Positions 2,374 to 56,359 of a stretch of 64,000 nucleotides of DNA are shown here, piece by piece. Under the pieces are notes generated by a model that saw nothing but the letters and a program-made list of their open reading frames with translations, was not told where the DNA came from and searched no databases. The stretch comes from Bacilli bacterium (GTDB lineage Bacteria; Bacillota_I; Bacilli_A; RF39; UBA660): assembly GCA_017484205.1 (NCBI GenBank), contig JAFUTO010000002.1, positions 16,334 through 80,333 of the forward strand, given 5' to 3'. Both the position numbers and the translations under genes were made by a program. Within the stretch, counting starts at the first letter, position 1. Each line of letters opens with the position of its first letter.

Positions 2374-4740
2374 ATGAAGAAAAAATATATTATCTTTTTA
2401 TTAGTTCTTTTTATGCCTTTTATGGTACTTGCAGAGGAGCAAACTGGCACAGCTGATCATGTGACAGTAAGAAGTGCGGCGACATCAAAATCTACTTGTG
2501 TTGCGAGTACTAGAGGATGCGCCGAAATAAATGGTTCAATAACTATATTAAGTGATATTATAGAAACAACTGATTCTAATGATGGTTGTCCGTCTAAAAA
2601 GTGGTATAAAGTAAAAGGTAATGATAAAGAGGATGGTAAAGAGTACGAAGGATATGGATGTTCTTCATATATAACAATTAATACCAATGTAGAACCTAAA
2701 ACAGAAGAGGACATTAAAGTTATATCTGATACTGTAATTGCTTATGGTACTATTAATAATGGTTATGTTTATTCAGAACCTGATACTGCTTCCGCTTTGA
2801 GAAGCGATCCAACTACAGAAAAAATTGCTATATTAGGTGATGCAACTAATACTAATGCTAGTGGTTGCAAAGAGATGTATAAAATTTTATATAGTAACTT
2901 AATTTCATATGCTTGTAAGGGTAATTTTACAAATGTTACTAGTGTATCTGTCATGAACACTGCTAGCATTTCATATAATTATGAAACAGAGTTAGCAAAG
3001 TTTCCTGAAAGCTATAGAAGTTATTTAAATAATTTACATAAATTGCATCCTAATTGGAGATTTTATGCTATAGATACTAATTTAAATTTTAGCGATGTAG
3101 TAGCAAGCGAGCAAAAACAAAGTTATTTATCTGGTTCTACTGATTCTGGATATTTTGTAACATTAGAACCAAACTATTATAATTGGAAAACTAATACTTG
3201 GACATCTCAAGATTCAGGCAGTTGGTATGTTGCATCAAAAGAAGCGACGGAGTATTATGTTGACCCTAGAACTTATTTAGATGAAAAACAGGTATTTGTA
3301 TTTGAAGATTCTAGAGCTTATTCTTATCAAGTGGACGCTGCTTTACAAAAAATGATTAATTATGCAGGTGCTAGTAACTTGTCTATTTCATACGATGGTA
3401 AAACATATAGCTATTACGATGCATTTAAAGCATCAGCAGCTTTTTCTAAAGTAAGTGCGATGAGTATATTAGCTAGATCTAGAGTTGAAACAGGCAAGTT
3501 TACTTCTAATAGTGTTAGTGGAACTCGTGCATTTTCATATAATGGTAATACATATTCAGGATATTACAATTATTATAATATAGGTGCATGGGCACACAGT
3601 GGAAGAGATGCTATTACTAATGGATTAATATATGCATACAATGCAGGATGGAATAATAGATATAAGGCTATTATTGAAGGTGCTACATTTATAGCTACTA
3701 AATATGTTTATTCAGGACAAGAAACACAATATTTTCAAAAATTTAATGTAAATCCATCAACTATATATAGTATTTATGGACATCAATATCAAACTAACAT
3801 ACAAGCTCCTACTATAGAAGGAACTTATGTATACTGGGGATTCCAAGATTCAGGTAATATTAATCAACCCGTAGTGTTCCATATACCAGTATATAAAAAT
3901 ATGCCAAGTAAAGCTGCAATTCAACCTACTAGTGGAAATCCAAATAACTGGCTTACATCTATTTCTGTTGATGGCAAGTCATTAACTAATTATACTGATG
4001 CTTCTGGTAAAGAAATCTTTGATGGAGATGTTTATTATAGCTATGATAATAACTGGGATGGTGTTGCTGATGCTGTTTATTCTAATAGTGTAATTAAGTA
4101 TACTGTTTCATATGATACGACTAAAATTAATATAAAAACATCACAAGCTGTATCAACTTCTACTGTAAGTAACACAGGTGATATTGCAATAAAAGATAAA
4201 ACTACTACTATTGATATAGTTGTAACAGCAGCAAACAAAACTACTAAAACATATAGATTAATTGTAACTAGGGATGATAAACCAACAACTGATGAAAATG
4301 GAAATGTTATTTATGCAGATATTGCAAAGGTATTGAGTAGTGTTAGTGTTAAATATAATTCAACATACATGTATGGTCTTGCTTTGGGTACAAGTTATGA
4401 TACAATTAAAAATGCTATTAAAAAAGTAGATAATAGTGTTACTGTTACGATAACTAAAAATAGTAATAACAATACTGGTAATTTAGCTACAGGTGATAAA
4501 ATTAGTATAAATAATGGTAAGGAAACTAAAACATACACTTATGTATTGTATGGAGATTTAAATGGCGATGGTAAAATAAGTGTCCTTGATTTAATACATA
4601 TTAGAAATATTATTTTGGATTCATCTAATCTTACAGGTGCGTATAGAGAAGCAGGAGATATTAACCATGATGGGAAGTCTAATGTTCTTGATTTGATTTT
4701 AGTAAGAAATGATATATTAGGAGATTCTATATCTCAATAG
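2374..4740 (+). CDS. Secreted dockerin-containing putative peptidoglycan hydrolase (SH3b-like + GH73/glucosaminidase-like + cadherin-like beta-sandwich + type-I dockerin)
   Basis: 788 aa; signal peptide MKKKYIIFLLVLFMPFMVLA; SH3b-like segment; ILARSRVETGKF...YNYYNIGAW...YSGQETQYFQKFNV resembles a GH73 active-site region; C-terminal duplicated dockerin repeats GDLNGDGKISVLDL.../GDINHDGKSNVLDL... Confidence 0.6.
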   Translation: MKKKYIIFLLVLFMPFMVLAEEQTGTADHVTVRSAATSKSTCVASTRGCAEINGSITILSDIIETTDSNDGCPSKKWYKVKGNDKEDGKEYEGYGCSSYITINTNVEPKTEEDIKVISDTVIAYGTINNGYVYSEPDTASALRSDPTTEKIAILGDATNTNASGCKEMYKILYSNLISYACKGNFTNVTSVSVMNTASISYNYETELAKFPESYRSYLNNLHKLHPNWRFYAIDTNLNFSDVVASEQKQSYLSGSTDSGYFVTLEPNYYNWKTNTWTSQDSGSWYVASKEATEYYVDPRTYLDEKQVFVFEDSRAYSYQVDAALQKMINYAGASNLSISYDGKTYSYYDAFKASAAFSKVSAMSILARSRVETGKFTSNSVSGTRAFSYNGNTYSGYYNYYNIGAWAHSGRDAITNGLIYAYNAGWNNRYKAIIEGATFIATKYVYSGQETQYFQKFNVNPSTIYSIYGHQYQTNIQAPTIEGTYVYWGFQDSGNINQPVVFHIPVYKNMPSKAAIQPTSGNPNNWLTSISVDGKSLTNYTDASGKEIFDGDVYYSYDNNWDGVADAVYSNSVIKYTVSYDTTKINIKTSQAVSTSTVSNTGDIAIKDKTTTIDIVVTAANKTTKTYRLIVTRDDKPTTDENGNVIYADIAKVLSSVSVKYNSTYMYGLALGTSYDTIKNAIKKVDNSVTVTITKNSNNNTGNLATGDKISINNGKETKTYTYVLYGDLNGDGKISVLDLIHIRNIILDSSNLTGAYREAGDINHDGKSNVLDLILVRNDILGDSISQ

Positions 4741-4753
4741 AAAAGGTGAAAAT

Positions 4754-6160
4754 ATGAAAAAAATAAATATAATTTTAACAATATTTCTTTCATTTTTATT
4801 CGTAGGTAATGTTAAAGCAGCTAGTGCTAAAATAACTGTTAGTCCTGCATCAAAAACAATATTAGTTGGAAATACAATTACAGTTACTGTTACAACATCA
4901 TCTACATCTACTTTGGGAGCTGTTAGTTATACTGTTCAATATAATTCAAATATATTATCTTTGACTTCAACTACTTCTCCAACAGGTGGAGCTAGAACTG
5001 TAGGATATTTTAATTCTAAAGGAAACACAACAATTTCCTATACATATACATTCAAAGCTATTTCTTCTGGTAATGCTACAATATCCATAGTAGGTGCCGA
5101 AGCAGGGGATGATAATGGAACAGCGTTATCAGTAACATCTAGTTCTGCTTCAATCAAAGTAATGACCCAAGCACAGTTGCAAGCTACATATAGTGGAAAT
5201 AACTATTTATCTGGGTTATCTATTGAAGGATATGAATTAGATCCTGCATTCAATAGAGATACGTTAGAATATAATGTAACATTAAAGCCTGAAACAGAAA
5301 ATGTTATAATATCTGCTACAAAAGAAGATTCTACTGCTAGTATTACTGGTGCTGGTGAAATAGCAGTGTCAGAAGGAGCTAATACAATTAGTATTGATGT
5401 TGTTGCTCAAAATGGTAATGTTAGGACTTATGTTATTAATGCTGTAGTTGAAGAATATGATCCGATTAATGTTACAGTGGATGGCAAAAATTATACGATT
5501 GTTAGAAGTACTAAAACACTTGAGTTTAATAATAATTTGTTTACTGCAACAAAAGAAAACATTACAGGTGAGGAAGTACCAGCATTTTATAACGAAATAA
5601 CTGATACTACTTTAATTGCTTTAAAAGACGAAGAAGGCAAGGTAGAATATTTCATCTATAAAGATGATAATTATAAAAAATTTAATGAACTTAAATTAGG
5701 TAGTGTTGATTTGATGGTTCTATCTACAAATGATATTCCTACTGAATATAAAAACGCTACTATTACAGTTAATGAAAAAGAATATGGGGCATATAAATTA
5801 AGTGATACATCTAGATTTTCTTTAATATATGGTACTAATTTAACAAACAATAATACAGGCTTATATGTGTATGATAATTTAGAAAATACATTACAAAGAT
5901 ATGATGCTGATATGGTTAATAATATGACAGCTAAAATTGATAAATTAACTAAGACTAATTATATATTGATTTTTACAAGCGCAGGTTTATTAATTTTGCT
6001 TATTGTCGCTTTGATACCTAAAAAACCAAAATCAAAAAGTGTAGATGAACAATCTATAGAGGAAACACCTGTATTAGATATTGACCAGGCAAAAGAAGAA
6101 CCAAAACCTAAGAAAGAAAAGAAACAACAAGTTAAAAAACAAGATAAAAAGAAGAAGTAA
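4754..6160 (+). CDS. Membrane-anchored cohesin-domain protein (cohesin + cadherin-like domain + conserved juxtamembrane domain + TM helix + Lys-rich cytoplasmic tail)
   Basis: 468 aa; signal peptide; N-terminal ~140 aa with cohesin-like pattern (ITVSPASKTILVGNTITVTV...YTVQYNSNILSL...ISYTYTFKAISSGNATISI); NNYLSGLSIEGYELDPAFNRDTLEYNV cadherin-like domain; C-terminal hydrophobic helix ILIFTSAGLLILLIVALI followed by a K/E-rich tail; lies 14 nt downstream of the dockerin gene. Confidence 0.6.
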   Translation: MKKINIILTIFLSFLFVGNVKAASAKITVSPASKTILVGNTITVTVTTSSTSTLGAVSYTVQYNSNILSLTSTTSPTGGARTVGYFNSKGNTTISYTYTFKAISSGNATISIVGAEAGDDNGTALSVTSSSASIKVMTQAQLQATYSGNNYLSGLSIEGYELDPAFNRDTLEYNVTLKPETENVIISATKEDSTASITGAGEIAVSEGANTISIDVVAQNGNVRTYVINAVVEEYDPINVTVDGKNYTIVRSTKTLEFNNNLFTATKENITGEEVPAFYNEITDTTLIALKDEEGKVEYFIYKDDNYKKFNELKLGSVDLMVLSTNDIPTEYKNATITVNEKEYGAYKLSDTSRFSLIYGTNLTNNNTGLYVYDNLENTLQRYDADMVNNMTAKIDKLTKTNYILIFTSAGLLILLIVALIPKKPKSKSVDEQSIEETPVLDIDQAKEEPKPKKEKKQQVKKQDKKKK

Positions 6161-6174
6161 TTCTTCTTTTTTGT
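6148..6174 (+). terminator. Rho-independent terminator
   Basis: agaagaag-taa-ttcttctt hairpin overlapping the stop codon, followed by tttttt. Confidence 0.65.
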
Positions 6175-6202
6175 ATACTATATGTCTACTTTACATTTAT
6201 TT

Positions 6203-6244
6203 TTGACAAAAGCATTTACATAATTATTGCTGCTTTGGTATAAT
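6203..6244 (+). promoter_or_regulatory. Promoter region: perfect TTGACA (6203-6208) and extended -10 TGgTATAAT (6236-6244)
   Basis: Both hexamers are visible, but their spacing is non-canonical (27 nt), so there may be two overlapping promoters; RBS aggagg precedes the ATG at 6268. Confidence 0.4.
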
Positions 6245-6267
6245 TAAGAAAATAGGAGGTATGTATT

Positions 6268-8157: not shown

Positions 8158-8166
8158 GGTGATTAT

Positions 8167-9543: not shown

Positions 9544-9561
9544 TTCTTTCTTCATTTATTA
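9529..9561 (+). terminator. Rho-independent terminator overlapping the 3' end of 8167..9543
   Basis: gaagaaagaa-gttag-ttctttcttc hairpin followed by atttatt. Confidence 0.55.
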
Positions 9562-9570
9562 TGGTATAAT
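9540..9570 (+). promoter_or_regulatory. Extended -10 promoter (TGgTATAAT at 9562-9570) for the glycosyltransferase gene
   Basis: tggtataat motif 17 nt upstream of RBS aggtgg and the ATG at 9587. Confidence 0.4.
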
Positions 9571-9586
9571 AAATATAGGTGGTAGT

Positions 9587-10666: not shown

Positions 10667-10695
10667 AACATATAATTTAATACCATTTACATAAT

Positions 10696-10723
10696 TTGAC
10701 AAATAAAATATAAATGGTATAAT
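10696..10723 (+). promoter_or_regulatory. Strong sigma-A promoter: TTGACA, 16-nt spacer, TGgTATAAT
   Basis: ttgaca at 10696-10701; extended -10 tggtataat at 10715-10723; fires into an ORF-free GC-enriched region. Confidence 0.55.
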
Positions 10724-11270
10724 TATATTATCAATTGATGGCACATTATTCTAGTCAATTGAATTTACTATGAAGGTGGAATTAAAAAGCCACTAAAGAG
10801 CACATCTGTGAAGCTTTTGGTGCTTGCTTCTTACGCCCAGTTTGGGGTGAGTGCTGGAAGAAAGAATGCCGGGCGTCCGTAATGGCATACGAAAACGACC
10901 CTTCATTCGTGGAGACCTATCTTTGTATAACACCTATACACGTAAGTTGATGGATGTCATACGAACTAGGATTAAACCTGCTATGTGGGGAAACTTGCGA
11001 GTAGCGTAGCTTGTCTTGAGTGGACAATGGGGATAATTACTTATTTATATTATTTCTAGCTAAAATAATATAAAGGCATTATAATTTGAAACATTGTTTG
11101 CAAAAAAGAATTAATAGTAAATGTTGATGAGGAAAACTCCTAGAGTGTTAAAAATATAGGATTGCAGTGTGTACTAAGTGGTAATCAAGCCATATAGACA
11201 GCTATATTATCTTCTATAAAGGGGAACCGCTATACTGGTAACGGTATAGTAGAAGATAGAGAAATTCTGC

Positions 11271-11299: not shown

Positions 11300-11327
11300 A
11301 AGCCAAATTGAGATTTTTTTTGAATAT

Positions 11328-46400: not shown

Positions 46401-46930
46401 TACTTGATAAATCTACGACAATAACTGTTACAAGTAAATATTATCCTAATATTGTTAAGACAGTTAATGTTACAGTAGAAATTACATTAATTACATCAGA
46501 AGTACACGATATTCAAAGAGAATCAACTAAATATGATCCATATATTACATTTATTGAATTAAAAACATCAATTCAAGATTTCTTAGATAACCTTGATAAT
46601 GATAATAGATTCTTACATGTATATGGATTAGATGGTGTTGAAATTAAAGATTATACTAAGTTCGTAGGAACTGGTATGAAGGTTACATTAGAAAATAATG
46701 GACACACTTATGATTCACTTGATATTGTTGTAAAAGGTGATATAGATGGCGATGGATATAGTATCGCAAATGATATAGCTAAAATTAAATCTCACATATT
46801 GAAAAAATCAACACTTGAAGGAGTTGAATTCCTTGCTGCTGATATAGATGATGATGGCTATGTTGTTGCGAATGACCAAGCAAAGGTTAAGAGCTATGTT
46901 TTAAAACGTATATCATCATATATAAATTAA
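25481..46930 (+). CDS. Giant (7149 aa) secreted dockerin-bearing surface protein: nine glycine-rich domains + >40 cadherin-like beta-sandwich domains + Big_2-like domain + C-terminal type-I dockerin
   Basis: Signal peptide; nine ~350-aa Gly-rich units (ELWGAxGG ... GGGATDVRL ... SRIMVAGGGGG ... GGGGGYYGG ... GGSSYISGY ... C..GTTDI.CSYHYSGY ... GNGYAKI), each followed by two cadherin-like domains (NxYL..L......L.P.F.....Y.V ...TYT(I/V).V.R); ~25 tandem cadherin-like domains at 39300-46200; Big_2-like (FVTVDANGIITAADV..KSTTITVTS); dockerin GDIDGDGYSIANDIAKIKSHIL.../ADIDDDGYVVANDQAKVKSYVL; one uninterrupted ORF. Confidence 0.8.
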   Translation: MKKYRGFLYVFLLLAMLMVPFNVAESNIQNKVLADEIIDSSKLSSLVVTGFENNLDPEFNSETTTYNLSLPSSIIDLDIETETISSGAEVSVSGNLYLKNNTGSITITVTNPNATAPTTYTINYTKESSSDTTEYTFTSTKDVQTFTTTKTGLYKFELWGAQGGHLRNTYNNGGGYTKGEIYLSSGTELYVYVGEAGAISTTGTFNGGGAGGIGSTNGFSGGGATDVRLIKGTNWNDADSLASRIMVAGGGGGASGNSNYDTAGGKSAAGGLISYTGGYYTEHQSEYVVDDVTYYIYGGAANQTSGGAGGINHYSATGDNESGSFGIGGNSNSTSGSRGSGGGGGGYYGGGAGGGTGESGYGQGGGGGTSYISGHAGSIAITAVDDLTPRNDSNNNICTDGTTDVKCSYHYSGYKFTNTVMIDGKGYNWTTEIGEQVGTPKTTGTGTYNGNRDDGYAKITLLSTTSDDNYLTNITSSDGTFTQTFDPLTSTYTLTLSAYTAKFTLDGTTSDPYASVQGFGEYSINLGETKRIDILVTSTSGNTKIYKVIATRSESELTTSSTKLKSLTFGGGTYTLDFEPLKYEYEIDVPLNTIDLSVEAVTFDEGASTKVSGNEYMKNSTGTIKVVVSKDGLEDTTYKIKYNKTLPDPDLSDLTQTFSYTGNYQTFTAPYSTEYRIELWGAEGGCYENNGCGQEGAYVAGTITLSRGTRLYVYVGQGLASINNAAFNATTSSTGGGNPGGGATDVRLIPGTWNDTYSLNSRIMVAGGGGSGQDGDWGGAAGGLIGYSSSRSGYTNTGGTQTGPGVGQENPTGCATGSFGIGSTCGATGGGGYYGGGGASHIYGSGSGGSSYISGHTGAVAITSEVDRTPKDGCTTGTTDIECSYHYSGYTFTDTTMIDGLGYNWTNEVGEYVGMPTWNGESTMTGNTGHGYAKIAVVSLSDDNYLTDISTNIGTWDKTFNPTTYVYNISLDKYEQKVTVSGVTSDKNAVISNLGEYKIKAGETKVVNLLVTAPSGKIKTYTLNITREALVEGEHNSKLAELEIEGIKLDPIFTSLTTEYNIMFSKNIYDLNITATPYDSDATVTITGDKYITDDYNAITIKVDAPSVESTTYKIYYTKLDYGTVMYEYGYTGEYETFVAPYYANYKIELWGAKGSYSSGNNGAYTSGNIYLTSGTTLYVYVGNKTDGMAGGWNGGGNAIRSDGFGGGGATDVRLTPTSSLTTWNEINSLTSRIMVAAGGGGAISWAGGAQGGYGGALVGGSGANRVSGGSANTPATGGTQTTGGTTVRNGSGAMYSTSNVGGFGYGASVTNGSGTNYGGGAGGGGYWGGASGNDYSGSLNSGAGGSSYISGYLGSVAVKSNTNYLPRLDSLGNICANGTTDIVCSYHYSGYVFTDGEMIAGNALMPNYTGTDRMTGNASNGFAKISIVDVESQNDYLDDLIFKKLDYSDDYLVDLGFEPTKNNYTVTLDEYTRAFELSGELGDENARVTGLGTYTIEPGESKDINIIVTAVDGNSRTYKVTVNRKTMEDHTALLKNLQVDKYNLNEAFYSKKYDYTVNIYDVEIDLVINASTFDSDAVVTVSGNTYINSNTGVVTVRVKHVGLEDEVYTITYTKVTPSMDNVTFNYTGEYQTWTAPFSAKYKIEAWGAAGGGGAINNHTSASSGGLGGYAEATFKILEGTNLYIYAGGKGSYGSGSSSYGGAVGGWNGGGNGGNSGSGSGGGATDVRMTPTSAKNVWNELNSLYSRIIVAGGAGGTDDSGGTYNGSNDGSGGSGSGLNGMGAWIDGTYYASYGGTQSNGYALGEGGSATTNTDTGGAGGGYYGGTVTNHSNGGAGAGSSYIKGYPGADTTYISYQDGAEYMEGSFKEAQNSGNGYVTISMLGIISDNIYLTDLTVTTDLITDSLIEETFDPQSGKYTAYLDKYSELFYVKGTLSDSNSKVTGLGEYRIEPGETKDIEVTVTAESGKTKTYTITVSRDDFEDGEHSTKLKSLYEETYSLRENFYSEKYDYRVNVYGNEIDTVWHYTTYDPEAQVTIEGDKYLKGHNVITFTVTLPEEYGVDPTVYEVVFTKVVTTEPSKNDYLKELKSSAGTLSPEYDVLNQTYKVTLSSTETGTRLTGKLDEGNAYATGLDKFYTVEPGQTRNVEIIVTSDYGTTRTYTVEIERASYDDSVASTKLKSLVISEYETDIDFQSEVYEYDIVLPKGEIDLTINAIPYDSDAIVAIQNDKHLVADEGTVTITVTKAGVEDTVYKINYTKYDEYSEDFDYTGEYQTFVAPYTGKYTFELWGAQGGTGYYSTQPTPGLGAYTKGTITLEKGTTLYIYVGGKGGNSANGSSIPTGGYNGGGNGTTDDSRGDSGGAGGGASDIRYYINTTGVWNNSKSLATRIMVAGGGGGSHSTNTTNNTEAMNAGALEVTGQISTWTTGWTPIVNQTTGNAFGYGITGESYIYCHAMAGGGGGYYGGVNFVDSSNCSGRASGGSSYISGYLGSVAITSINDTTPRLDSNEEQCISGTEDIECSYHYSGYIFTDTVMKSGNAEQPTHDGTSTQTGNSGNGYAKVSMELSQDAYLNNLETDYGVWNVNFNPLQLDYDLHLSEYEAYVNLTGELSNPNATVTGLDRMYELALGETKIVPVVVTAPNGDTKTYTITMHRDDYTDEHSSKLSLLNVIKYEEGYLDPKFTPINNNYTISIDSSEAEIYIDYETFDPTATVTVTGTGRIIGESGVIKVKVSASGVEDTTYTISYVLESIPEGTEFTFPFTGDVQEFIVPTTGYYQLEVWGAQGGGRDTTTFNNGQLGYGGAGGYSTGTIKLYKDQVLYVYVGGRGTPSNSGLAAGGFNGGGSSWASDSGDPAAGGGGATDIRTGLNDLYTRFIVAGGGGGGGEDAETGGIGGGINGGNGGSDCYGTQTTGRCGAIFGTGASTPYDGGGGGGGWYGGGTAGGSQTIPTGNSGSDTSGGSGGSGFVLTSETVSNTPNGYKLGEEWYLEDAKTVAGNGVMPTTDHFTIMYGKGGDGYAVITLLEKVSRDNYLVDLKSDYGTLTPTFGSDIENYTLSLDAYTPNFTLSGKASNAKATVTGFDTYSIEPGETKVINIVVTSTSGDTRTYKVTATRDNFTDTHSSLLSSLKINDGLEYELKPIFNSKVYEYNIKVYYNLADLDIVTDVYDDDAKVTITGNKHLSDSGVITITVNCEVAGETVYKINYTRDKSLEGYIPTDKDVVNTYDYTGNYQTFIAPDNGDYIIELWGAQGNYANRGRSYGGAGAYTYGIINLQKDQKLYVYVGENRTDRNASWNAGTTGGSGNDTANGGSTNGYGGGGATDIRLTPGSWNDLASLKSRIMVAAGGGGGSDYAYPANGGAAGALVGFDGANGKYPNVGIPNVPPTGATQTSGGKTSVISASGGTGANGGFGTGGNGNGDWGSGGGGGYFNGGGGGYTSNSVDSGAGGSSYISGYTGSIAIASADVTTPRNDQAGALCANGTTDITCSYHYSGKIFTNTVMLSGEDVIPSKTGTGTSVGNTGSGYAKIIQILKDEDNYLETLTSTYGTFDKTYDPLVTEYTLTLDQYDTSFTLEGTLSNDDATVTGLGYYEIEVGETKEIQIVVTAESGDTKTYTVTAIRNPFTDSHSTKLKSLRLLDNEGIASPYGLNEEFNSLKYNYTANLYYNVIDLTVNAVPYDPAATVEILDNLYLIDDDGRITVKVTAPDTDPTYYYIDYHKDEDVDVEDEYDYDYTGQYQTFIAPYTGKYLFQAWGAEGGTNGGKGAYTDGVIALDRDQLIYIYVGGRGATGCITATGGGWNGGGNPSATGCSSSGGGATDFRLIKASETKTVWNEITSLRSRIMVAAGAGAGESSVGGAGGTINGTTAYNGTYATQTSGSAFGYCPQPTYDASAGGGGYWGGTWPGRDAYHGGGGSSYISGYLGTVAVISKDDTSPRLDKNGNACTNESALNDITCSYHYSGLTFENSQMIAGNAIMPTIDGTDTMTGKSGNGYAKITPLFYSRDYYLTNITATSELGNTMFPVFDPLTDTYSVTIDKYDEWVTIDAELSDPTNSVVAGTGEYRLENPGDEKTVELVVTAQSGETKTYTVYVRRNEFDTHTTKLKDLDIIGSEDLIDPRFHSLNYEYDIILSSGVIDASIGYAKYDSEAIVTITTLEEKNKVVGDDIYYLKDDEGTIIITVTLPDEYVDPNNEDTQPTTYIIRYNKNLATGNDYSYTGKYQTWVAPTTGYYKFELWGASGGSAFGTYASSNVNYGGYTSGTMNLPSGTTLYVYVGSAGQGVGSGYAYGGWNGGGNNYTSCNTSTAGGGASDIRVVNTSELTIWNEFDSLKSRIMVAGAAGGRGGFGVGGSAGGLESYSGTYNSTGNGHRHSNQSAATQTSGGKSDNHSNAYGEGWPINTDGSFGYGGTGSGGGCMGSGGGGGYYGGAGAYNSGAGSGGSSYISGHNGSNSVAEESTVDNIIHTGSSEHYSGYVFTDTVMIDGQGYNWTNVKEEQVEMPNPSGGTYALGRGQDGNGYARITPLDEDNYLLSLTVTIDKKFKTDDFDNVEGAKFTPTFDKFTNTYTLELPDHVTDLTIGARPSSDTATIEGIGNHEVLAGENIYEVVVTAESGEERVYTIKVTRPASKESRALDISVTGFVETLCKPFESQGYCKLTPASYDPDNTDYYLKVPSGIRDLEWTATKMHEYQKITGAGITRLGPWLNLITIEVQAESCAYLSEGETCEDITDYTYHVTRDMTGDNYIDELIIYDPDIDIGFDYLLSEYSFRVENQYTELGMTVVLDDPNASYEIIGNENFEVGSNIVEIIVTAENGEKRTYVLNVYRLANSNKLLSELHVKNSGNEYTLTPPFEDIITSYALDVPNEIDNIDITATAAYNKTSISGTGNHTLKTGLNEIHVVTTAENGETETYTIVVNRAKSDNAYLKSLSAAEGNFNETYVKTNNNYTMTVNPYVKKLDITAIVEEENATYKITGNDNFKIGPNVVNIVVTAENGNRNTYTITVTKEGSEINTLKSLETNRGDLTPTFNPNTNNYTITVPNDITDITVAGEMTDILSKVTGFGTYRLTTGENIIAITVTSETGVPNTYTITVFREYNSNHYLASLTVNNGTLTPDFDKETSEYRVNVSNDVENIVITGIPEVSTTTVTGNGTKTLVPGENEFIITATAEDGSSKEYKVIVTRDKSSNANLDSLTIQESRINPTFNPMITSYTAKVLYDIEDVHVIAIPSDPEATVSVVGNTNLSVGDNTVTVTVTAPDGTEKEYEITVKRLSEEESPDLYLASLTVSSCTIDFNKKTYYYECVLNNEISEVEIEATPEDLGDTVLGTGTLNLSVGDNIRQVVVKNGGFERVYTIKVTRLKSTESRLKDLIVKDHTLDPEFNSDTLTYNLTTKEYELEFEFVKLHDGETIEVIGNDNLALGNNVITIRVTSEDGAHQTEYVLNVERTVRDDNYLSNLWVEDETISPEFNKLVNNYKVFVPYETTSVIIGAEAEDRNATVEGTGMKMVIPGPNTFTVRVKAEDNSVREYRITVTRAASPNNYLESLTIDGEVYTPEFNRETLTYTLTVPYETDTLNIEAIPEDEEATVLGDGVVSLKQGVNNIEIYVTAPNGNVRTYVVKVTRKDPITAKLLNIEVENYTLEPEFKPDDQLYQVTVDYETTKLNFIITKMDPYSTYEIVGNRNFKIGLNDVYINVTASNRVDTFQYHVVVNRQAYSNTFLSYLTVNQGELSPEFEKTTLTYNVEVPNNVASITLDGAPDYPLSTVTGLGDYTLNVGVNTIKVVVTSPSGIKRTYTVNVNRRKSSNANLESIKSNIGTLTKDDEYTYTLVVPKYTTNIGRANFTVTTEDPQATVSMPVTIDLTQTTAYPIRVTSPDGTRTKEYTVNVEFDLSHDATLASLIPSVGELNPKFDPKTNNYRIDLFDDEEEEYFDLYLNEVEATLLNRSLTYQLTELETTAEIMIQAEDGTINTYTILIAKSKTKEKYLDNIVITGVTEVDPSIVLPSFRSKTFDYTLDVPYEVAKIGFDITKRHPSQQIKIYNNDVLQSGDSYALTVGVNNFRIEVTNSLGEVTNYNYVITRATSTNANLKVLGLTDPEIVFEGFNKDLLEYDAQVPYEYENVVINAIPEEEGARVTINGATYLVADEERTVTIKVTAPDGKTTKTYKINILREPEVNNLLKTLTLSSGRIQTLNPKFRPGHNDYTLTVSSTTANLQVDALPQLETTVVTGDLGLVPVATGENVIKIYSTATYEGKEYTRTYTINVTRSSADNALLESLEVFNGTMVEPFDKTRENYTINVENDVTSLDLKYKPEDEAATVTITGNENLGYGNENLVTIKVRSANGNVVKNYFLHVVVKGESNPYLKDLQIDGVTVDKFDKYIEEYNITVENAVNDIDVLGIPESDNSTVISGNGMHALTIGENSFDITVEAQDGETRKTYTINVTREENAYLMGIVTDRGGAITDFDKSTYEYELTVENDIEDITIIGWASDMNAEVTGNGKYLLDVGDNPIYLTVKNGTTRKVYTVNVKRKGSSNTNLLYLTSTDGDLDPLFSNDIDNYEMHLPNYKTKLALAYAPEHNATVQVINNNLSGTESTVQLLVTAEDGTTRTINIKVYLEDGGYFNSRLASLSVAEGAISPKFDPDTHSYTLTVNQDVEKIHITAVPEETNSVVTGDGEVEIELGRNEQHVVVTAEDGTTTTYTLIVFRKDMDNADLTGLYTDIGELNPEFNPKIYEYEIDVPEETRKVHLTAVAYSEKTIEGDGDVYLQKGTTIRNIIVTSESGISNTYVVKINRALSTNHDIINITESTGEMSPIFNQSTLDYGFKVGDVKPNLDKTYVVTNHVEFDVTTYSELAEVIYEKEVTSTDEDGNEVVERVTLPNNDVSLDYGNNKIIIYAMSEDGNTSDEYVFNIYRIHDLTNITVPGDATGPNMEDGSPNHISVQPGGTFDLLAEIGYTPEDADFKDLIFKSNNTSFVTVDANGIITAADVLDKSTTITVTSKYYPNIVKTVNVTVEITLITSEVHDIQRESTKYDPYITFIELKTSIQDFLDNLDNDNRFLHVYGLDGVEIKDYTKFVGTGMKVTLENNGHTYDSLDIVVKGDIDGDGYSIANDIAKIKSHILKKSTLEGVEFLAADIDDDGYVVANDQAKVKSYVLKRISSYIN
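25900..46200 (+). repeat. Intragenic tandem domain repeats (nine ~1.4-1.9 kb Gly-rich units, then a ~265-bp-period cadherin-like array)
   Basis: Recurring nucleotide blocks such as ggtggagctactga(c/t)gttcgttta at 26145, 27702, 29103, 30645...; tggggtgc (ELWGA) at 25956, 27518, 28930, 30418, 32338, 33810, 35203, 36714, 38160. Confidence 0.8.
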
Positions 46931-46960
46931 GATATCACAAAAGTGATATCTTTTTTATTG
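46931..46960 (+). terminator. Rho-independent terminator of the giant gene
   Basis: gatatcac-aaaa-gtgatatc perfect hairpin followed by tttttt. Confidence 0.8.
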
Positions 46961-53000: not shown

Positions 53001-54150
53001 TACAATGACATTTACGGTAAGAGCTGCTAATGGTGCATTAAGAGATTATGTTGTAACTGTTACAAAGACAGGTAGAACACCATCTTCAGATGTTTATTTA
53101 TCTAGTTTAAAAGTAGATAATTATGAGTTGACACCTAGTTTTGATAAAACCGAAGAGGTTTATTCAATAGGAAGTATCCCTTATAGTTTACAAACATTAA
53201 CAGTAAGGGCTACAGGTAATTATGCAGGTCAAACAATTACGTATAGTTTAAATGGAACTGATGTTACAGCAAATGATGATGGAAGTGCAACAATTAATGT
53301 TGCTGGAACTACAGGATCTAATTTGATAAATGTTCATGTTGTAGCTGAAAACGGAACATCTACAAAAAATTATCAAATATCTTATACTAAGACGCCATCA
53401 TCTAATGCTTACTTAGCTAGTATGATAGATGGATTACATAAGATTACAAATTTCAATAAAGAAACAAAAGATTATGAAATTAGTGTTGATAGTACAGTTG
53501 GTACATTAACATTAACATTAACTACTGAAGAAGAACATGCTACTATGACTATTAATGGTACTAAACGTACTCATCAATGGGCATATGAAGCTACGAACCT
53601 AAAAGGTGGAACTAATGTTGTTGTAATATTAGTAACAGCAGAAAATGGTGATACAGCAACTTATAAATTGACTATCAATAAAGAAGGTTCAAGTGAACTT
53701 ATAACTTCTGAAGAATTTGGACATATAATAGAAGATGGTTTCATAAAAACAGCAATATTAAATGAAACTATTGGTGATTTAATGTCTAATGAATTGGATA
53801 ATGATGTTGACATGTTACAAGTTTGGGATGCAGAAGAAACTGCTGAAATAAATGATACATCTACTAAAGTTGCTACTGGTCAAATAGTTAGACTAGTTGA
53901 TAGAACAACAGGTGCAGAATTGGATAGAAAAGTAGTAGTTGTTAGGGGAGATACTGATGGCAATGGTTCAATCAATGTATTAGACTCAATTCCAATTGTT
54001 AACCAATCATTAAGAAGATTAACATTAGTTGGTGCCTATGCTCAAGCAGCAGATGTTGATAAGAATGGTTCAATCAATGTATTAGACTCAATTCCAATTG
54101 TTAATCATTCATTAAGAAGAACATTTATAGATTATACTATAGGAAGTTAA
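47074..54150 (+). CDS. Putative adaptor scaffoldin (2358 aa): N-terminal cohesin-like module + ~24 cadherin-like beta-sandwich domains + C-terminal dockerin
   Basis: Signal peptide; N-terminal ~180 aa ending ...DPGAIGFMFFKVKDTAPAGQTFTFAIS, which resembles the cohesin C-terminal strands; repeated cadherin-like units; C-terminus GDTDGNGSINVLDSIPIVNQSLRR...ADVDKNGSINVLDSIPIVNHSLRR (dockerin duplicated segments). Confidence 0.7.
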   Translation: MKMQSSKFKGILLFLVSFMVFTIVPTVAKAATYNFSFSAYNCGNSTYTEDDIIDNCILEYYDGNLAKLNDGVVVDTDKYIMLVLEYEYTSGTGAAVLSVDTSYDNTFVENLSFTQTAIDADNPIFTRSIARKWNSSTSDTGSLVVLAYDSDDETLTYDPGAIGFMFFKVKDTAPAGQTFTFAISDDPDDTRVSDSTGNIHIDWAASPISFKVAGSATSTDTSLKTLNAKGSNATDYSIYMDNGYTTEFSAGTSNRTFYAVVPYDVTSITLNGEVTDSAAQFIPGNGTTYSRNHNLDVGNNEITFRVTAQSGTTEDYYINVYRLSNDASLQTLTTSGNVTLNGFASNVYSYDISTTYATVTTNVTSKPTHENAFVTNSEDVLWDKNTSSGSYTQTFALPGFGTDVNTKVVKVQAEDCLSEYASVPGNTCHTQDYTINVSRLNPSTDATLKALAVDGTSIFVEGTTDYDQGSQPYSKSSADITATANDSKATVVASTVGNKTLNVGDNTITVTVEAEDCKVITGSNPSGSCHTQDYTIKFYRRSNNANLNTLVVTGTGVSMNPAFTDHSYVGPYTVSYPSGATSVNVKASVEEEHATINITGIEDGIDYSNLSNQLSIIVTAEDGNTKTYVLRFSKVLSRESRLDSLTVSGVSLSPSPFDPDTYTYSGSVDGNVEKVTIGATLKDADKSTFMEGYGPREVELNYGDNTFYVRVQGEADDATSSYNVTITRNEKTIKTLKEISIDSVPIDPFDPDTITYTVDPVDYSTTSVTVKAVVTEGSDATYTVLNQSGGVAVGGVINLNTGDNTVTIRVRAQDGSTGDYTVTIPREKNNVATVDSVTVFGNAATCDNDTRKCTITVTNDHSSIAPTDVVVIPTDSSATVTKPTDTRNLVVSTPSNPRTNTYIFSVKAEDGVTTKEYELIITREASDDVSLKEVSVFTNEGQTYRCTTFTGFACTISVPSTTTGYTLSATPNSGAATVDGTGSFTMDGASDSSQIKVLTVTAEDEHSQVYQIKIERSKSTNANLKTITIDGVEIDGFDGVNKQNYTVTVPGTTEAITLGAEVDDTGKATIENSDTILGRKDLVYGSEGNVYTLKVIAEAGEGSVKTYTVTVIRSNNIDSTLSMIQIGGSNLNGFASNTYAYNYNDTYYQDLGNENQLVVPYNKTSITLLGVPTDTTYGTVKYNGTASTEATTINLTTGVNTITVTGVAHDTSKTTDYVLKVFRTLNSNNSITKLEVAGVEATWDDENNKYTVTVPNSVDSVGTLNVNVTLPAKQVATDPDATVTIPTMSLTTDNVNNYQIIVTSEAGEAKTYPVEITRAKSTVKTLTALAVTNGAFSPSFTPNTNEYTVIVPASTTEFTVSYTKADPKETVTGARRYDMTSSNMDVIVEVQAEDPEEPVNRYTLHIERTESAVNTLSSIVVNSGETIYALNPLFSPDKTSYVVEVPGTVSQVNITATPTDSRSTVTGDGVKTVSRGDNTFTITSTSETNTFINYTVNVKVLDKTINTLNNITVTLDDGTVLPLSPNFASDIQNYTIADQPYSVTTVNIGVERTDSDSTVKIGNVDYTMTDETNGITVPQSLNAGANTIKVVVTAQDGTSSTYNIRIRREENDDATLRTLNVSGGSLSPTFAPEITSYSVELDSDVTTLSPSEVTAIATDSNATVTKDPTVTISDDGTTIYDILVTAQNGTTKTYSITVSRKKSADAKLKRVDLTGASISPSFTPNNDQYTLNISSTSTEFTIQGIPNHDNATVSYNGVGSTEGITYPASTDTVSITVTAEDGSTTKTYTFNVVTATARDATLADLEVLGYTLDPEFDTTTVVYDIGEVEFGTDSLTIIATPTNTNATVNYYVDGVKQDDNVVDLPQALGSKSITIEVVPATGSKAQAKYYSVNYDMVTSRNNYLATLIPSSGTLSPSFSKGRTAYSMTVPYDTESISFQVTTDNNQSSVSNDGTTFMFTDAEPATYVYNDLRVGTNTMTFTVRAANGALRDYVVTVTKTGRTPSSDVYLSSLKVDNYELTPSFDKTEEVYSIGSIPYSLQTLTVRATGNYAGQTITYSLNGTDVTANDDGSATINVAGTTGSNLINVHVVAENGTSTKNYQISYTKTPSSNAYLASMIDGLHKITNFNKETKDYEISVDSTVGTLTLTLTTEEEHATMTINGTKRTHQWAYEATNLKGGTNVVVILVTAENGDTATYKLTINKEGSSELITSEEFGHIIEDGFIKTAILNETIGDLMSNELDNDVDMLQVWDAEETAEINDTSTKVATGQIVRLVDRTTGAELDRKVVVVRGDTDGNGSINVLDSIPIVNQSLRRLTLVGAYAQAADVDKNGSINVLDSIPIVNHSLRRTFIDYTIGS

Positions 54151-54166
54151 GGGGGCGAAACGAGGT

Positions 54167-56359
54167 ATGAAAAATATGAAAAAATTAAAATCATTGGTTG
54201 CCATAGTACTAGGATTTTTCCTAGTCTATGCAACTACTGTATTTGCAGCAGGATCTGTAACTGTAGGAATGGGTGGCAATTCATCAGTTGCTGTTGGTTC
54301 TACTATTGATGTTACAATTTACCTTGATAACGTTAATGCAAGTACAGAAGGTATAATTGCTTTTCAAGGTGATATTCATTTTGATACAAATTATTTAGAA
54401 TTAGTAACAGTAACTCCTGCAAGTAGTCCTTATTCATTTGATTATGAAGTAGGTGGAACTGATGTTGTATATTTAACTGGACTTGATACTTCATTTAGAA
54501 AAGGTATCAAATCCAATACAACAATTTATACTTTCACATTTAAAGCATTAAAAAATGGTACTACAACTGTAACATTAGAAAATGTTATAGCAGGTGATCC
54601 TAGTGGTGACGTAAGTGCAAATAACTCAAGTAAAGTAATTAATATTGGTGGTAGTTCAAGTACACCAACAGTTAAAAGTAGCGATGCTGATTTAAAATCA
54701 TTAAGTGTTTCTGGTTATAATATTAGTCCTGCTTTTGATGCAGCAACAACTACTTATACACTTACTGTACCAAGTGATGCAAGCAATGTTACTATTGCAG
54801 CATTACCTTCAAGTGGTAAAGCTTCTGTTAGTGGTGTAGGTTCTAAAACTTTATCAGATGGATTAAATTCAGTAGAAATTACAGTAACAGCAGAAGATGG
54901 TACTAAAAAGACATATACAGTTAATATTACAAAAGAAGCAAGTACAGTTCCAACAACTAAGAGTAGTGATGCTACACTAAAATCATTGGAATTGGCTGGT
55001 GGATATACTGTATCACCAACATTTACTTCTGATAAAACTACATATTCATTAACTGTTCCAAATAATGTTACTTCATTAGATGTTACAGCAATTGCAAATG
55101 ATGCAAATGCTAAAGTAGAAGTAACTGGTAATACAAACTGGAAAACAGGAGTTAACCCTGTTAAAGTTACAGTAACAGCAGAAGATGGTACAACTAAAGT
55201 ATATACAGTTAACGTAACAAGAAAAGATAATACTTCAGCTGTAAGTGGAGGTACTACTCCTACTAAGAGTTCTAATAATTATTTAAAAGAATTATCTACT
55301 AAAAATGGTGATATAAGTCCAGTATTTAGTAAAACAACAAGTAATTATAGTGTTACTGTTCCATATAATGTTTCTAGATTAGACTTAAATTATTTAGTGG
55401 AAGATGAAAAATCTTCAGTTAAAATCAATGGTAATAGTGATTTTAAAGTAGAATCAGTTAACACTGTTGAAGTTGTTGTAACAGCAGAAGATGGAAGTCA
55501 AAGAACTTATACAATTAATGTTACAAGATCTTCAAAAACAGGTGAAAACTTATTAGATGATATTATTATTGGTGGTGGAAGTACAAGTTTAAATCCAAAA
55601 TTTAAACCAACAACTTATGATTATGGTATTGAATTAGATCGTAATACAACTAGTATTGATATTACACCTATAACAAGTAATCCAAATGCTAAAGTGGAAG
55701 TAACAGGTAATGAAAATTTACAAGAAGGAAATAATACTATTTTGATTAAAGTTACTGATCAAGAAGGCTTTGTTCAATATTATAAAATTAACGCTTATAA
55801 GAAAGCTACAAATGGAATTGTTCTATTTGGTATAGATTTTCCCAGGTGGATGGTTTATACGGCTATTGCGTTGGTTCCTGCCTTATTAATCCTATTAGTA
55901 CTTGCTAAAAAGAAACAAGAAAATAAGGAATTAGCACCAGCAGCTTCAACAATTGAATTCAAGCCAGAATTTAATTTCTCATCTAAAAATGGTACGGATG
56001 ATGATTATGTTGAATCAGGTGGCGTATTAAACCAAGTAGTTAAAGAAAAAGAGGAATCTCTTGAAAAAACAGCTGTTGATATTAGAGATATTCCAACTAG
56101 TGCAGTTGGTATTACTGAAGGAATATCTACTGGATTAAATAAGAGTATGATGGAAGAATATCCAAGAAAGGTTATAGAAGAAGAGCCTGAGCAAATACCT
56201 TATGATCCATATGATGATAAAGTTACAAAAGAAGAACTTATCGATGCGATTAATGAAAAAAATCCAGAAAAGTTAAAAATACTATATCAACAAGAAATGT
56301 TAAATAGAGAAAAAGAAAGAGTAAAAGAAGCTGAATATCATGAAAGACATAGAAGATAA
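54167..56359 (+). CDS. Membrane-anchored cohesin-domain protein (cohesin + five cadherin-like domains + TM helix + ~170-aa acidic cytoplasmic tail)
   Basis: 730 aa; signal peptide; cohesin-like domain (GSVTVGMGGNSSVAVGSTIDVTIYLDNV...IHFDTNYLELVTV...TIYTFTFKALKNGTTTVTLENV); TM segment WMVYTAIALVPALLILLVLA followed by KKKQENKE...; lies 16 nt downstream of the adaptor gene. Confidence 0.7.
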   Translation: MKNMKKLKSLVAIVLGFFLVYATTVFAAGSVTVGMGGNSSVAVGSTIDVTIYLDNVNASTEGIIAFQGDIHFDTNYLELVTVTPASSPYSFDYEVGGTDVVYLTGLDTSFRKGIKSNTTIYTFTFKALKNGTTTVTLENVIAGDPSGDVSANNSSKVINIGGSSSTPTVKSSDADLKSLSVSGYNISPAFDAATTTYTLTVPSDASNVTIAALPSSGKASVSGVGSKTLSDGLNSVEITVTAEDGTKKTYTVNITKEASTVPTTKSSDATLKSLELAGGYTVSPTFTSDKTTYSLTVPNNVTSLDVTAIANDANAKVEVTGNTNWKTGVNPVKVTVTAEDGTTKVYTVNVTRKDNTSAVSGGTTPTKSSNNYLKELSTKNGDISPVFSKTTSNYSVTVPYNVSRLDLNYLVEDEKSSVKINGNSDFKVESVNTVEVVVTAEDGSQRTYTINVTRSSKTGENLLDDIIIGGGSTSLNPKFKPTTYDYGIELDRNTTSIDITPITSNPNAKVEVTGNENLQEGNNTILIKVTDQEGFVQYYKINAYKKATNGIVLFGIDFPRWMVYTAIALVPALLILLVLAKKKQENKELAPAASTIEFKPEFNFSSKNGTDDDYVESGGVLNQVVKEKEESLEKTAVDIRDIPTSAVGITEGISTGLNKSMMEEYPRKVIEEEPEQIPYDPYDDKVTKEELIDAINEKNPEKLKILYQQEMLNREKERVKEAEYHERHRR

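Follow-up and report, generated by a model that had tools for sequence, protein, structure and literature searches.

Two independent loci with predicted monovalent cohesin-dockerin coupling to membrane anchors in a Bacilli bacterium

We find that the window, the whole 64,000-nt stretch of DNA that was analyzed from an uncultured gut bacterium, carries two independent cell-surface systems and not one: locus A (2374-9543), a two-gene operon duplicated in tandem (H1-C1 and H2-C2), and locus B (25481-56359), which comprises three genes, here called the giant, the adaptor, and the anchor. All seven genes lie on the plus strand. In each system, monovalent cohesin-dockerin coupling would connect secreted proteins to a bitopic membrane anchor, a reading that we regard, with the roles proposed below, as moderately probable. 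If it is true, the plug-and-socket modules of cellulosomes have been reused to tether wall-cutting enzymes and to hang a giant fiber on a membrane anchor. An earlier note on this DNA had instead described a single, integrated, cellulosome-like hierarchy of several tiers. The seven open reading frames that it listed are all present, exactly at the coordinates given here. However, 16 kb of DNA with housekeeping genes separates the two loci, and each is found without the other in other genomes; for these reasons we treat them as independent. Every cohesin protein is monovalent, and nothing resembles a multienzyme scaffoldin. About 16 kb of the span 2374-56359, which the note had taken as one system, belongs to housekeeping genes unrelated to either locus, and an OLE RNA is also encoded in this span.

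A six-frame scan of the window revealed exactly four dockerins and four cohesins, with no further module of either type. All four duplicated-segment dockerins pass the Pfam Dockerin_1 gathering cutoff of 22.9 bits: H1 (2374-4740) scores 40.1 bits, H2 (6268-8157) 41.3 bits, the adaptor (47074-54150) 30.5 bits when its C-terminal segment is scanned, and the giant (25481-46930) 24.9 bits on its C-terminal 249 aa, a score that drops to 20.6 bits if the domain is scanned within a 2649-aa piece. In every dockerin, two Ca-loop motifs of 12 residues follow each other at a spacing of exactly 34 residues. The loops read DLNGDGKISVLD and DINHDGKSNVLD in H1 and DIDGDGYSIAND and DIDDDGYVVAND in the giant, and the first loop of H2 is degenerate (DLNGSATISIID). 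Three dockerin classes differ in their helix residues, which are kept across species within each class.

The cohesins are also real; the Pfam Cohesin model matches one of them directly and two at the family level. The anchor cohesin (54167-56359, residues 33-159, nt 54263-54643) exceeds the Pfam Cohesin cutoff (42.1 bits, E = 1.3e-10), and its family profile matches the Clostridium perfringens NagJ cohesin (PDB 2w1n, 2jh2, 2o4e, and 2ozn) with E values of 6e-8 to 3e-7. As single sequences, the modules of C2 (8167-9543; 22.1 bits, slightly below the cutoff) and C1 (4754-6160; 18.2 bits) do not reach it, but 13 of the 15 members of their family match Pfam Cohesin, the best matches of the family profile are solved cohesins, and this profile aligns with that of the anchor family at 98.8% probability.

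All seven proteins share a signal-peptide-like N terminus and a cadherin-like domain. A second hydrophobic segment, C-terminal and with a Lys-rich or basic tail behind it, occurs in C1, C2, and the anchor alone; this upholds the earlier assignment of three type I membrane proteins anchored by a C-terminal TM helix, neither by SLH domains nor by LPXTG. Also borne out was the lack of plant-biomass cargo: a GH73 peptidoglycan hydrolase is the only enzyme, and the other proteins are repeat rich and adhesin-like.

That enzyme is H1 (788 aa, MBR1376260.1), a secreted protein with a signal peptide. It contains two SH3b-like regions (the SH3_3 match is weak), a GH73 N-acetylglucosaminidase domain recognized by structure and NCBIfam matches (about residues 200-510, nt 2971-3903), a weak cadherin-like domain followed by a predockerin module, and the dockerin (residues 726-782, nt 4549-4719). 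H1 matches the Staphylococcus aureus Atl glucosaminidase 6fxo (E = 5.7e-12), SagB 6u0o/6fxp (E = 4e-7), and AtlE 4pi7; the Pfam Glucosaminidase model gave no match. Because its score against the NCBIfam SagB model (42.6 bits, E = 4e-11) is far under that model's curated cutoff of 425 bits, H1 appears to be a more distant GH73 protein and not a SagB orthologue. Residue E372, in a VETG motif, is invariant across the family, and family membership suggests a role as an autolysin. C1 (468 aa, MBR1376261.1) starts 13 nt after the H1 stop codon. This type I membrane protein comprises a signal peptide, a cohesin (residues 23-140, nt 4820-5173), a cadherin-like domain (residues 155-229, nt 5216-5440), a beta-rich domain for which no structural neighbor is known (residues 232-402, nt 5447-5959), and a TM helix (residues 403-421, nt 5960-6016) ahead of a Lys-rich tail.

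The second copy of the operon, preceded by a promoter-like site at 6215-6244, is altered. H2 (629 aa) is an H1 paralogue with 44% identity; in a pairwise alignment with H1, the first SH3b-like region is missing from H2 and 49 aa are deleted from its GH73 catalytic core. The deleted segment carries the family-invariant residues Y398, N399, N402, A405, G417, L418, and A421, and no GH73 match to H2 was found in PDB-derived or NCBIfam searches. Given the deletion, H2 is probably noncatalytic, so that of the two hydrolase-dockerin/cohesin pairs proposed earlier, only the H1 pair has an intact GH73 domain. The H2 dockerin occupies residues 563-619 (nt 7954-8124). C2 (458 aa), whose start is 9 nt past the H2 stop codon, is a C1 paralogue (37% identity) of identical architecture, with its cohesin at about residues 20-148 (nt 8224-8610) and its TM helix at residues 413-431 (nt 9403-9459); the 3' end of the C2 gene runs into a GT1 glycosyltransferase gene (9527-10666), overlapping its start. 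The dockerins of H1 and H2 are closely alike, while the cohesin modules of C1 and C2 are just 28% identical, which makes one-to-one specificity within locus A doubtful.

The two-gene unit of locus A is widely conserved. Every one of the 80 metagenomic loci with an H homologue carries a dockerin motif, and 78 of them have an adjacent downstream ORF, mostly at a spacing of 8 to 16 nt. When the 78 loci were grouped into 27 clusters at about 70% identity, the downstream ORF matched the cohesin-module HMM in 22 clusters and had a strong C-terminal hydrophobic segment in 25. The pair also occurs in distant Bacilli and in Lachnospiraceae contigs, and the hydrolase family is essentially absent among 2.9 million viral contigs. 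In relatives, the pair is found in conserved housekeeping neighborhoods, beside ezrA, tagO-type, or teichoic-acid genes. Adjacency of dockerin and cohesin genes is thus strongly conserved in other genomes; within the window, the spacing of 9 to 16 nt reported earlier holds for three of four cases (13, 9, and 16 nt), but the giant and the adaptor are separated by 143 nt.

The giant (7149 aa, MBR1376281.1), which opens locus B behind a promoter-like site at 25418-25446, is secreted and has a signal peptide. Up to about residue 4500, about 9 glycine-rich domains of the ALK/LTK type alternate with cadherin-like domains; beyond this point follow about 22 cadherin-like domains, Big_2, and the dockerin (residues 7085-7141, nt 46733-46903). 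Pfam recognizes nine ALK_LTK_GRD stretches, 9 + 22 Cadherin-like stretches, Big_2, and Dockerin_1, and glycine content rises and falls in alternation along the protein. Since the 143-nt gap after the gene holds a terminator-like hairpin (46929..46952, plus strand, immediately 3' of the gene) and a promoter-like site (47024-47052), the giant gene appears to be its own transcription unit, apart from the adaptor-anchor pair. Overall, the promoter-like and terminator-like sites agree with a division into the units H1-C1, H2-C2, the giant alone, and adaptor-anchor.

The adaptor (2358 aa, MBR1376282.1) has a signal peptide, a divergent cohesin-fold module at its N terminus (residues 31-215, nt 47164-47718) bearing an additional helix and a pair of invariant Cys residues, about 17 cadherin-like domains, and a dockerin (residues 2292-2338, nt 53947-54087). 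As the earlier note had claimed, a cohesin at the N terminus and a dockerin at the C terminus occur in one and the same protein, and a chain from giant to adaptor to anchor is therefore architecturally possible. The anchor (730 aa, MBR1376283.1) starts 16 nt past the adaptor stop codon; this type I membrane protein has a signal peptide, the cohesin, four cadherin-like domains recognized by Pfam, a TM helix (residues 562-580, nt 55850-55906), and a 150-aa cytoplasmic tail with no match in Pfam. The tail carries the motif IPYDPYDxxVTKxELIDAI...KLKxLxxQxxLN, starting near nt 56195, which is conserved in 20 homologues representing 9 distinct tail variants and suggests an intracellular partner. The order of giant (ALK_GRD, cadherin-like, and dockerin), adaptor, and anchor recurs in another species (GCA_022769985.1), whose adaptor has the same Cys-pair N-module plus a dockerin. 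A wolf-gut contig also has the adaptor followed by an anchor-type gene; in that relative, the giant gene is not adjacent to the adaptor.

The sequences show domain identities, topology signals, and a conserved gene order; from gene order and adjacency, we infer the following binding partners and roles. In system A, the Sec-secreted SH3b-GH73 glucosaminidase H1 would be captured through its terminal dockerin by the single distal cohesin of C1 and thereby kept close to the membrane of the producing cell, at a set distance, where it may provide controlled autolysin activity in glycan-strand trimming, wall turnover, or daughter-cell separation. H2, having lost part of the GH73 core, would act with C2 as a regulatory or wall-binding variant. 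System B would form a long nonenzymatic fiber, in which the giant dockerin plugs into the N-terminal cohesin of the adaptor, the adaptor dockerin plugs into the anchor cohesin, and the four cadherin-like domains of the anchor push its cohesin outward. Points against this reading are the separate transcription unit of the giant gene, its lack of adjacency to the adaptor gene in the wolf-gut relative, the subthreshold single-sequence scores of the C1 and C2 cohesins, and the missing Pfam Glucosaminidase match of H1. Relatives have extra cohesin-TM genes and our view covers the window only, so other partners may exist elsewhere in the genome.

An alternative is a single multi-tier cellulosome-like complex of all four dockerin and four cohesin proteins, with binding across loci. 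The modules do belong to the same families and follow the same anchoring logic, their numbers balance at 4:4, and the cadherin-like domain recurs throughout; however, we consider this quite unlikely given the distance and housekeeping genes between the loci, their separate occurrence elsewhere, the distinct dockerin classes, and the monovalence of all cohesin proteins, which leaves no scaffold able to gather several cargos. Locus B might be wired otherwise, with adaptors polymerizing head to tail (the dockerin of one in the cohesin of the next) into a noncovalent filament, or with the giant dockerin bound directly to the anchor and the adaptor N-module serving as an adhesive tip; this we judge unlikely.

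The GH73-dockerin proteins could also be antagonistic lysins directed at competitors' walls, with the cohesin membrane protein as retention or immunity partner. Adjacent genes for an enzyme and a binding protein look like effector-immunity pairs, SH3b domains target peptidoglycan, and the module is duplicated and diversified in locus A. Yet no secretion-system or toxin-delivery genes are nearby, the pair sits in conserved housekeeping neighborhoods in relatives, and an enzyme tethered to the membrane of its producer would not reach other cells, making this explanation very unlikely. A last alternative would be that the dockerins are orphan Ca-binding modules that do not bind these cohesins, adjacency reflecting coexpression of surface proteins that share cadherin-like domains. 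Partnerless dockerin-like and cohesin-like modules are common outside cellulosomes (PMC11557425 lists several), but the dockerin-cohesin gene order is conserved in 27 sequence clusters spanning two or more bacterial classes, and the 4:4 stoichiometry is hard to explain without interaction; we consider this reading highly improbable.

Our preferred reading of two tethering systems has precedents, and a claim of novelty would be overstated: published work already includes TM-anchored single cohesins, cohesin-dockerin systems that are not cellulolytic, and a GH73-dockerin/cohesin pair. In Ruminococcus bicirculans, a noncellulolytic gut Firmicute like the host of locus A, a GH73 enzyme is associated with the sole dockerin and the sole cohesin of the genome (PMC4611034, citing Wegmann et al. 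2014), and the pair serves GH73, not plant-fiber enzymes. This is probably the same two-gene module; the mention there is in passing, with no description of a membrane-anchored cohesin partner, conserved operon structure, breadth of distribution, or a degenerate duplicate, as found for locus A. GH73 entries also appear in dockerin tables for R. albus strains (PMC4081043). TM-anchored single-cohesin "scaffoldins" have been predicted in Ruminococcus difficilis, R. sp. HUN007, and JE7B6/zg921/zg924 (PMC13463774) and in H. luporum, C. cibarium, and Lachnoclostridium sp. MSJ-17 (PMC11557425). Like C1, C2, and the anchor, they combine a single cohesin with a C-terminal TM helix that replaces SLH or sortase, and some of their hosts are likewise noncellulolytic. 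They serve many dockerin enzymes, e.g., amylases, whereas here each anchor would serve one GH73 protein or a giant nonenzymatic fiber, and the anchors differ in having cadherin-like domains, a beta domain without structural neighbor, or a conserved cytoplasmic motif.

Among solved structures, the nearest to the anchor-type cohesin (full-length profile match, E = 6e-8) are those from the noncellulosomal C. perfringens NagJ/NagH toxin complexes (2ozn, 2o4e, 2jh2, and 2w1n), in which monovalent cohesins also mediate pairwise assembly of noncellulolytic secreted proteins; there, both modules are on secreted glycoside hydrolases against host glycans, without membrane anchor, adaptor chain, or GH73. 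The ScaA-ScaB-ScaE and ScaC proteins of R. flavefaciens and the ScaB adaptor of A. cellulolyticus resemble locus B in forming a serial dockerin-cohesin chain to a cell-bound protein and in having an adaptor with both modules. Unlike these hierarchical cellulosomes, locus B has no multivalent scaffoldin, CBM, or plant-polysaccharide enzymes, its anchor uses a TM helix and not sortase or SLH, and its "cargo" is a 7149-aa structural protein. The S. aureus GH73 protein SagB functions together with SpdC, in a complex tethered to the membrane (PDB 6u0o and 6fxp). As proposed for H1-C1, a glucosaminidase is held by a partner membrane protein and acts on membrane-proximal peptidoglycan; SagB, however, is itself equipped with a TM helix, and its partner within the membrane is a polytopic CAAX-like protein, whereas the H1 tether would be an extracellular cohesin-dockerin plug.

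A six-frame scan of the window with three module HMMs and a loop-pair pattern found exactly four cohesins and four dockerins. The cohesin-dockerin observation is real and beyond chance, and the seven ORFs claimed for it in the earlier note are all present, with exact coordinates, on a metagenome-assembled chromosomal stretch of 25-36% G+C. In the NCBI records (proteins MBR1376260.1 to MBR1376283.1; locus tags IJ565_00380 onward), the labels are "hypothetical" or "cadherin-like beta sandwich domain-containing protein," and none carries a cohesin annotation. Locus A (2374-9543) encodes the secreted dockerin proteins H1 (2374-4740) and H2 (6268-8157) and the cohesin/cadherin-like/transmembrane (TM) proteins C1 (4754-6160) and C2 (8167-9543). 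Locus B (25481-56359) encodes three proteins referred to here as the giant (25481-46930), the adaptor (47074-54150), and the anchor (54167-56359).

All four of the predicted C-terminal dockerins scored above the gathering score of Pfam Dockerin_1 (PF00404; 22.9 bits): H1 with 40.1 bits, H2 with 41.3, the adaptor with 30.5, and the giant with 24.9, the last on its C-terminal segment only (last 249 residues; 20.6 bits inside a long fragment). Each has a duplicated EF-hand-like calcium loop (D-x-[ND]-x-[DN]-G-x5-D) followed by a helix, and in all four the two 12-residue loop motifs are spaced by exactly 34 residues. The first loop of H2, DLNGSATISIID, is degenerate, lacking the Asp5-Gly6 pair. 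Residues of the post-loop helix fall into three classes: LDL[IV]x[IV]RN in H1 and H2, GYxxAND[IQ]AK[IV]KS in the giant, and LDSIPIVN in the adaptor of the window, whose orthologues differ and are LDAVKIVNHYLGK-like. Class-specific features are retained in orthologues of other species, and the classes fit three putative dockerin specificity groups.

The four cohesin modules claimed, exactly one in each of four proteins, were recovered by routes of differing directness. The anchor module (aa 33 to 159) matched Pfam Cohesin (PF00963; gathering score, 24.1 bits) with 42.1 bits and an E value of 1.3e-10, and a profile of 13 anchor-type modules matched, from end to end, the solved noncellulosomal cohesin of Clostridium perfringens NagJ (E = 6e-8 to 3e-7). 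As single sequences, C1 (18.2 bits) and C2 (22.1 bits) both fell below the gathering score, and their support as cohesins comes from their family: 13 of its 15 members match Pfam Cohesin at an E value of ≤0.01 (best, 5e-8), the top matches of the family profile are solved cohesins (3l8q at 4e-4, 5g5d, 2y3n, and 1tyj), and hhalign links it to the family of anchor-type modules (98.8% probability, E = 6e-17). The nine-stranded beta-sandwich (jelly-roll) fold of cohesins was found. The N-terminal module of the adaptor (47164-47718) had no Pfam match at an E value of ≤10, no PDB match by phmmer or profile search, and a probability of 0.7% against the anchor cohesin family in hhalign; a word-indexed homologue search returned no match, not even its own protein. 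Its assignment as a cohesin-fold module came only through an exhaustive HMMER search followed by structure prediction. With just 3 homologues among 1.84 billion representatives, its family is extremely rare; a further match from the exhaustive search, P0125, was a low-complexity false positive and was dropped. The module also has features atypical of canonical cohesins, namely, two invariant cysteines (C12 and C26, module numbering), an extra alpha-helix at 19 to 31, and a low-confidence insert at 96 to 111.

All seven proteins have a signal-peptide-like N terminus. A second, C-terminal hydrophobic segment occurs only in C1 (aa 403 to 421), C2 (aa 413 to 431), and the anchor (aa 562 to 580), and the Lys-rich stretch that follows it indicates that these three are type I membrane proteins. 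The anchors terminate in a TM helix with a basic tail, and neither an SLH domain nor an LPXTG motif was detected, which bears out the proposal that a TM helix, and not SLH or LPXTG, provides the anchoring.

The gene arrangement departs from the earlier note in two respects. Tight spacing of a dockerin gene and the cohesin gene after it (9 to 16 nt) holds for three genes, with gaps of 13, 9, and 16 nt, but not for the giant, which is separated from the adaptor by 143 nt containing a terminator-like hairpin. Promoter- and terminator-like sites fit four putative transcription units: H1-C1, H2-C2(-GT1), the giant alone, and adaptor-anchor. The GT1-family glycosyltransferase gene (9527-10666, +) shares its first 17 nt with the 3′ end of C2 and is therefore probably cotranscribed with H2-C2. 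Nor do the seven genes form the single unified system that had been claimed; they make up two loci, between which (9543-25481) lie unrelated genes: that for GT1, OLE RNA, a probable OapA-like gene, glyA, folD, tRNA-Met, an ABC transporter, cardiolipin synthase, queH, a two-component system, a Bro-N protein, and holA. The OLE (ornate large extremophilic) RNA (10722-11322, +) is full length (Rfam RF01071, 378 bits, model positions 1 to 616), with a perfect −35/−10 promoter-like site beside it at 10696-10723. Directly 3′ of it, an ORF (11308-11943, +) encodes a 211-aa membrane protein with a weak CNNM-domain match, probably an OapA-like OLE-associated protein. Both lie within the 2374-56359 span and have no relation to the cohesin-dockerin genes. 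The Bro-N (phage antirepressor-like) gene (22939-23778, +) sits among housekeeping genes, immediately upstream of holA and locus B.

Hydrolase-like cargo had been proposed for both dockerin proteins of locus A; the proposal stands for H1 and is doubtful for H2, whose core is degenerate. The central domain of H1 matched Staphylococcus aureus Atl (6fxo) with an E value of 5.7e-12, SagB (6u0o/6fxp) with 4e-7, and AtlE (4pi7) with 1.6e-5. It also matched the NCBIfam SagB model at 4e-11, yet far under that model's equivalog-type cutoff, and no Pfam Glucosaminidase match was reported. E372 (VETG) corresponds in the alignment to the Glu of the LLETG motif in Atl and SagB and does not vary among 12 family members. 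With GH73 homology, the catalytic Glu in an E-[ST]-G motif, and an intact core, the domain is, as judged from sequence, a GH73 N-acetylglucosaminidase. The SH3b-like regions N-terminal to it are weak here, and relatives have clear SH3_3 matches. H2 is a 44%-identical paralogue without the first SH3b-like region and had no match to characterized GH73 catalytic domains. Its Glu is retained (RLEN), and the core is not intact: relative to H1 aa 373 to 421 it has lost 49 residues of the GH73 core, including seven family-invariant positions, so that H2 is probably not an active hydrolase. It looks like a pseudoenzyme kept with its own putative cohesin partner. C1 and C2 are 37% identical, and this value together with that for H1 and H2 identifies locus A as a tandem duplication.

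The GH73-dockerin family is widespread: the protein collection contains more than 635 relatives, and a metagenome scan confirmed at least 558 stretches. In a sample of 80 metagenomic loci of H homologues, the dockerin loop motif was present in every homologue, and an adjacent downstream ORF was present in 78, the remaining two lying at contig ends. When the 78 loci were clustered at ∼70% identity (27 clusters), the downstream ORF matched a cohesin-module HMM (E < 1e-3) in 22 clusters and had a strong C-terminal hydrophobic 19-mer in 25. The pair also occurs in Hadza and other human gut contigs, in a Lachnospiraceae-type contig, and in GCA_947623925.1, and in one relative it adjoins ezrA. Genes adjoining the module in relatives are of TagO type (Glycos_transf_4), TagF type, LytR-CpsA-Psr, or EzrA; these neighbors hint at a link of the module to wall-polymer synthesis or division.

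Several other readings of these genes were considered. Were the system a cellulosome or amylosome, a multivalent scaffoldin and polysaccharidase cargo would be expected. Monovalent adaptors do occur in ruminococcal cellulosomes. All four cohesin proteins of the window carry a single cohesin, and none is a scaffoldin with two or more; no plant-polysaccharide enzyme was found, GH73, which acts on peptidoglycan, being the sole catalytic domain among the window's four dockerin proteins; and the seven proteins yielded no CBM. We reject this reading, and the claim that the cargo is not cellulolytic holds for the window's proteins. Attachment differs as well, since cellulosomes and amylosomes use SLH domains or sortase (LPXTG), in contrast to the TM helix and basic tail found here. 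TM anchoring would make sense in a host that lacked a cell wall, in the manner of Mollicutes; that reading finds no support, as shown by the peptidoglycan hydrolase with SH3b domains encoded at the locus and by the TagF-type, TagO-type, LytR-CpsA-Psr, and EzrA genes beside the module in relatives. A phage origin of the GH73-dockerin genes was rejected likewise: 2.9 million viral contigs gave one weak match, and the family is essentially missing from them. The parts stand as described in the earlier note, as does their noncellulolytic, TM-anchored nature; unity and novelty were overstated. Noncellulolytic cohesin/dockerin organisms and single-cohesin proteins with a C-terminal TM helix were already reported computationally in 2024 and 2026 (PMC11557425, PMC13463774), and dockerin tables of Ruminococcus albus include GH73 (PMC4081043). 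In the literature we found no report joining dockerins to giants with cadherin-like (PF12733) or ALK-type glycine-rich (PF12810) domains and none treating the GH73-dockerin/cohesin-TM operon as a conserved module.

In the giant of locus B, about nine ALK/LTK-type glycine-rich domains alternate with cadherin-like domains, and about 22 more cadherin-like domains, Big_2, and the dockerin follow. Cadherin-like domains number about 17 in the adaptor and four in the anchor. The three would form a noncovalent fibre in which the anchor holds the adaptor and the adaptor holds the giant, a scheme whose every binding step we infer from gene order and domain identity. The cytoplasmic tail of the anchor (150 residues, 55907-56356) contains, from about 56195, the motif [ILV]PYDPYDxxVTKxE[LI][IVF]DA[IL]...KL[KQN][MI]LxxQ[DE]xLN, which has no Pfam match. 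It was found in 20 anchor-type homologues (nine distinct tail variants) that are only ∼27 to 40% identical overall, and also in the anchors of two relatives of locus B, L004 and L008. This conservation suggests a cytoplasmic binding partner.

Locus B is rarer than the locus A pair. The giant-adaptor-anchor order recurs in GCA_022769985.1 ("Tenericutes bacterium"), where the giant combines ALK_GRD, cadherin-like, Big_2, and dockerin domains and the adaptor keeps the Cys-pair N-terminal module and dockerin. In a wolf gut contig, the adaptor is followed by an anchor-type protein, two more cohesin proteins, and ezrA, with no giant gene nearby. A single-protein contig search returned only three loci, matched through the cadherin-like domain alone. 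Extra single-cohesin genes directly follow the anchor in L004 (15559-17973) and L008 (12201-13895); they encode cohesin/cadherin-like/TM proteins of 503 and 564 aa and a 244-aa Pfam-Cohesin protein. These have no evident dockerin partners, so cohesins and dockerins are not always matched 1:1. In L004, two Bro-N genes precede the adaptor homologue.

Cohesin-dockerin pairs are among the strongest noncovalent protein links and, to our knowledge, have been studied almost only as builders of fiber-degrading enzyme complexes. The modules described here, which come from a low-GC lineage of gut Bacilli that has not been cultured, seem to serve two different purposes, namely, holding an autolysin at the membrane and carrying a giant adhesin-like fibre. 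A broader reading, which we put forward tentatively and think rather unlikely to hold in full, joins two proposals. In one, the GH73-dockerin/cohesin-TM operon would be a general, so far unrecognized means of hydrolase positioning in gut Firmicutes (Bacilli MAGs, Lachnospiraceae, and ruminococci), an extracellular plug-and-socket tether setting the distance between hydrolase and membrane and degenerate paralogues acting as regulators. In the other, serial cohesin-dockerin links would build a noncovalent pilus-like fibre of more than 9,500 residues, made of glycine-rich and cadherin-like domains, on a bitopic anchor whose PYDPYD...KLKxL motif would couple it, mechanically or by signaling, to an intracellular partner. 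The most valuable leads are the proposed autolysin-tether operon, which is widespread, and the proposed three-protein giant fibre with its cytoplasmically conserved anchor. Because the autolysin module is common, with at least 558 confirmed relatives, it offers a testable hypothesis for control of wall hydrolysis in poorly studied gut Firmicutes. The putative new orthogonal cohesin-dockerin pairs may serve protein engineering, and a beta domain without structural neighbor and the conserved cytoplasmic motif of the anchor also merit study.

Downstream of locus B (58549-59427 and 61026-63967, +) lie genes for a XerC/D-type recombinase, an ADP-ribosylglycohydrolase, a VTC and DUF4956 pair, and a Cthe_2159-type carbohydrate-binding protein, the last ending 33 nt short of the window end.
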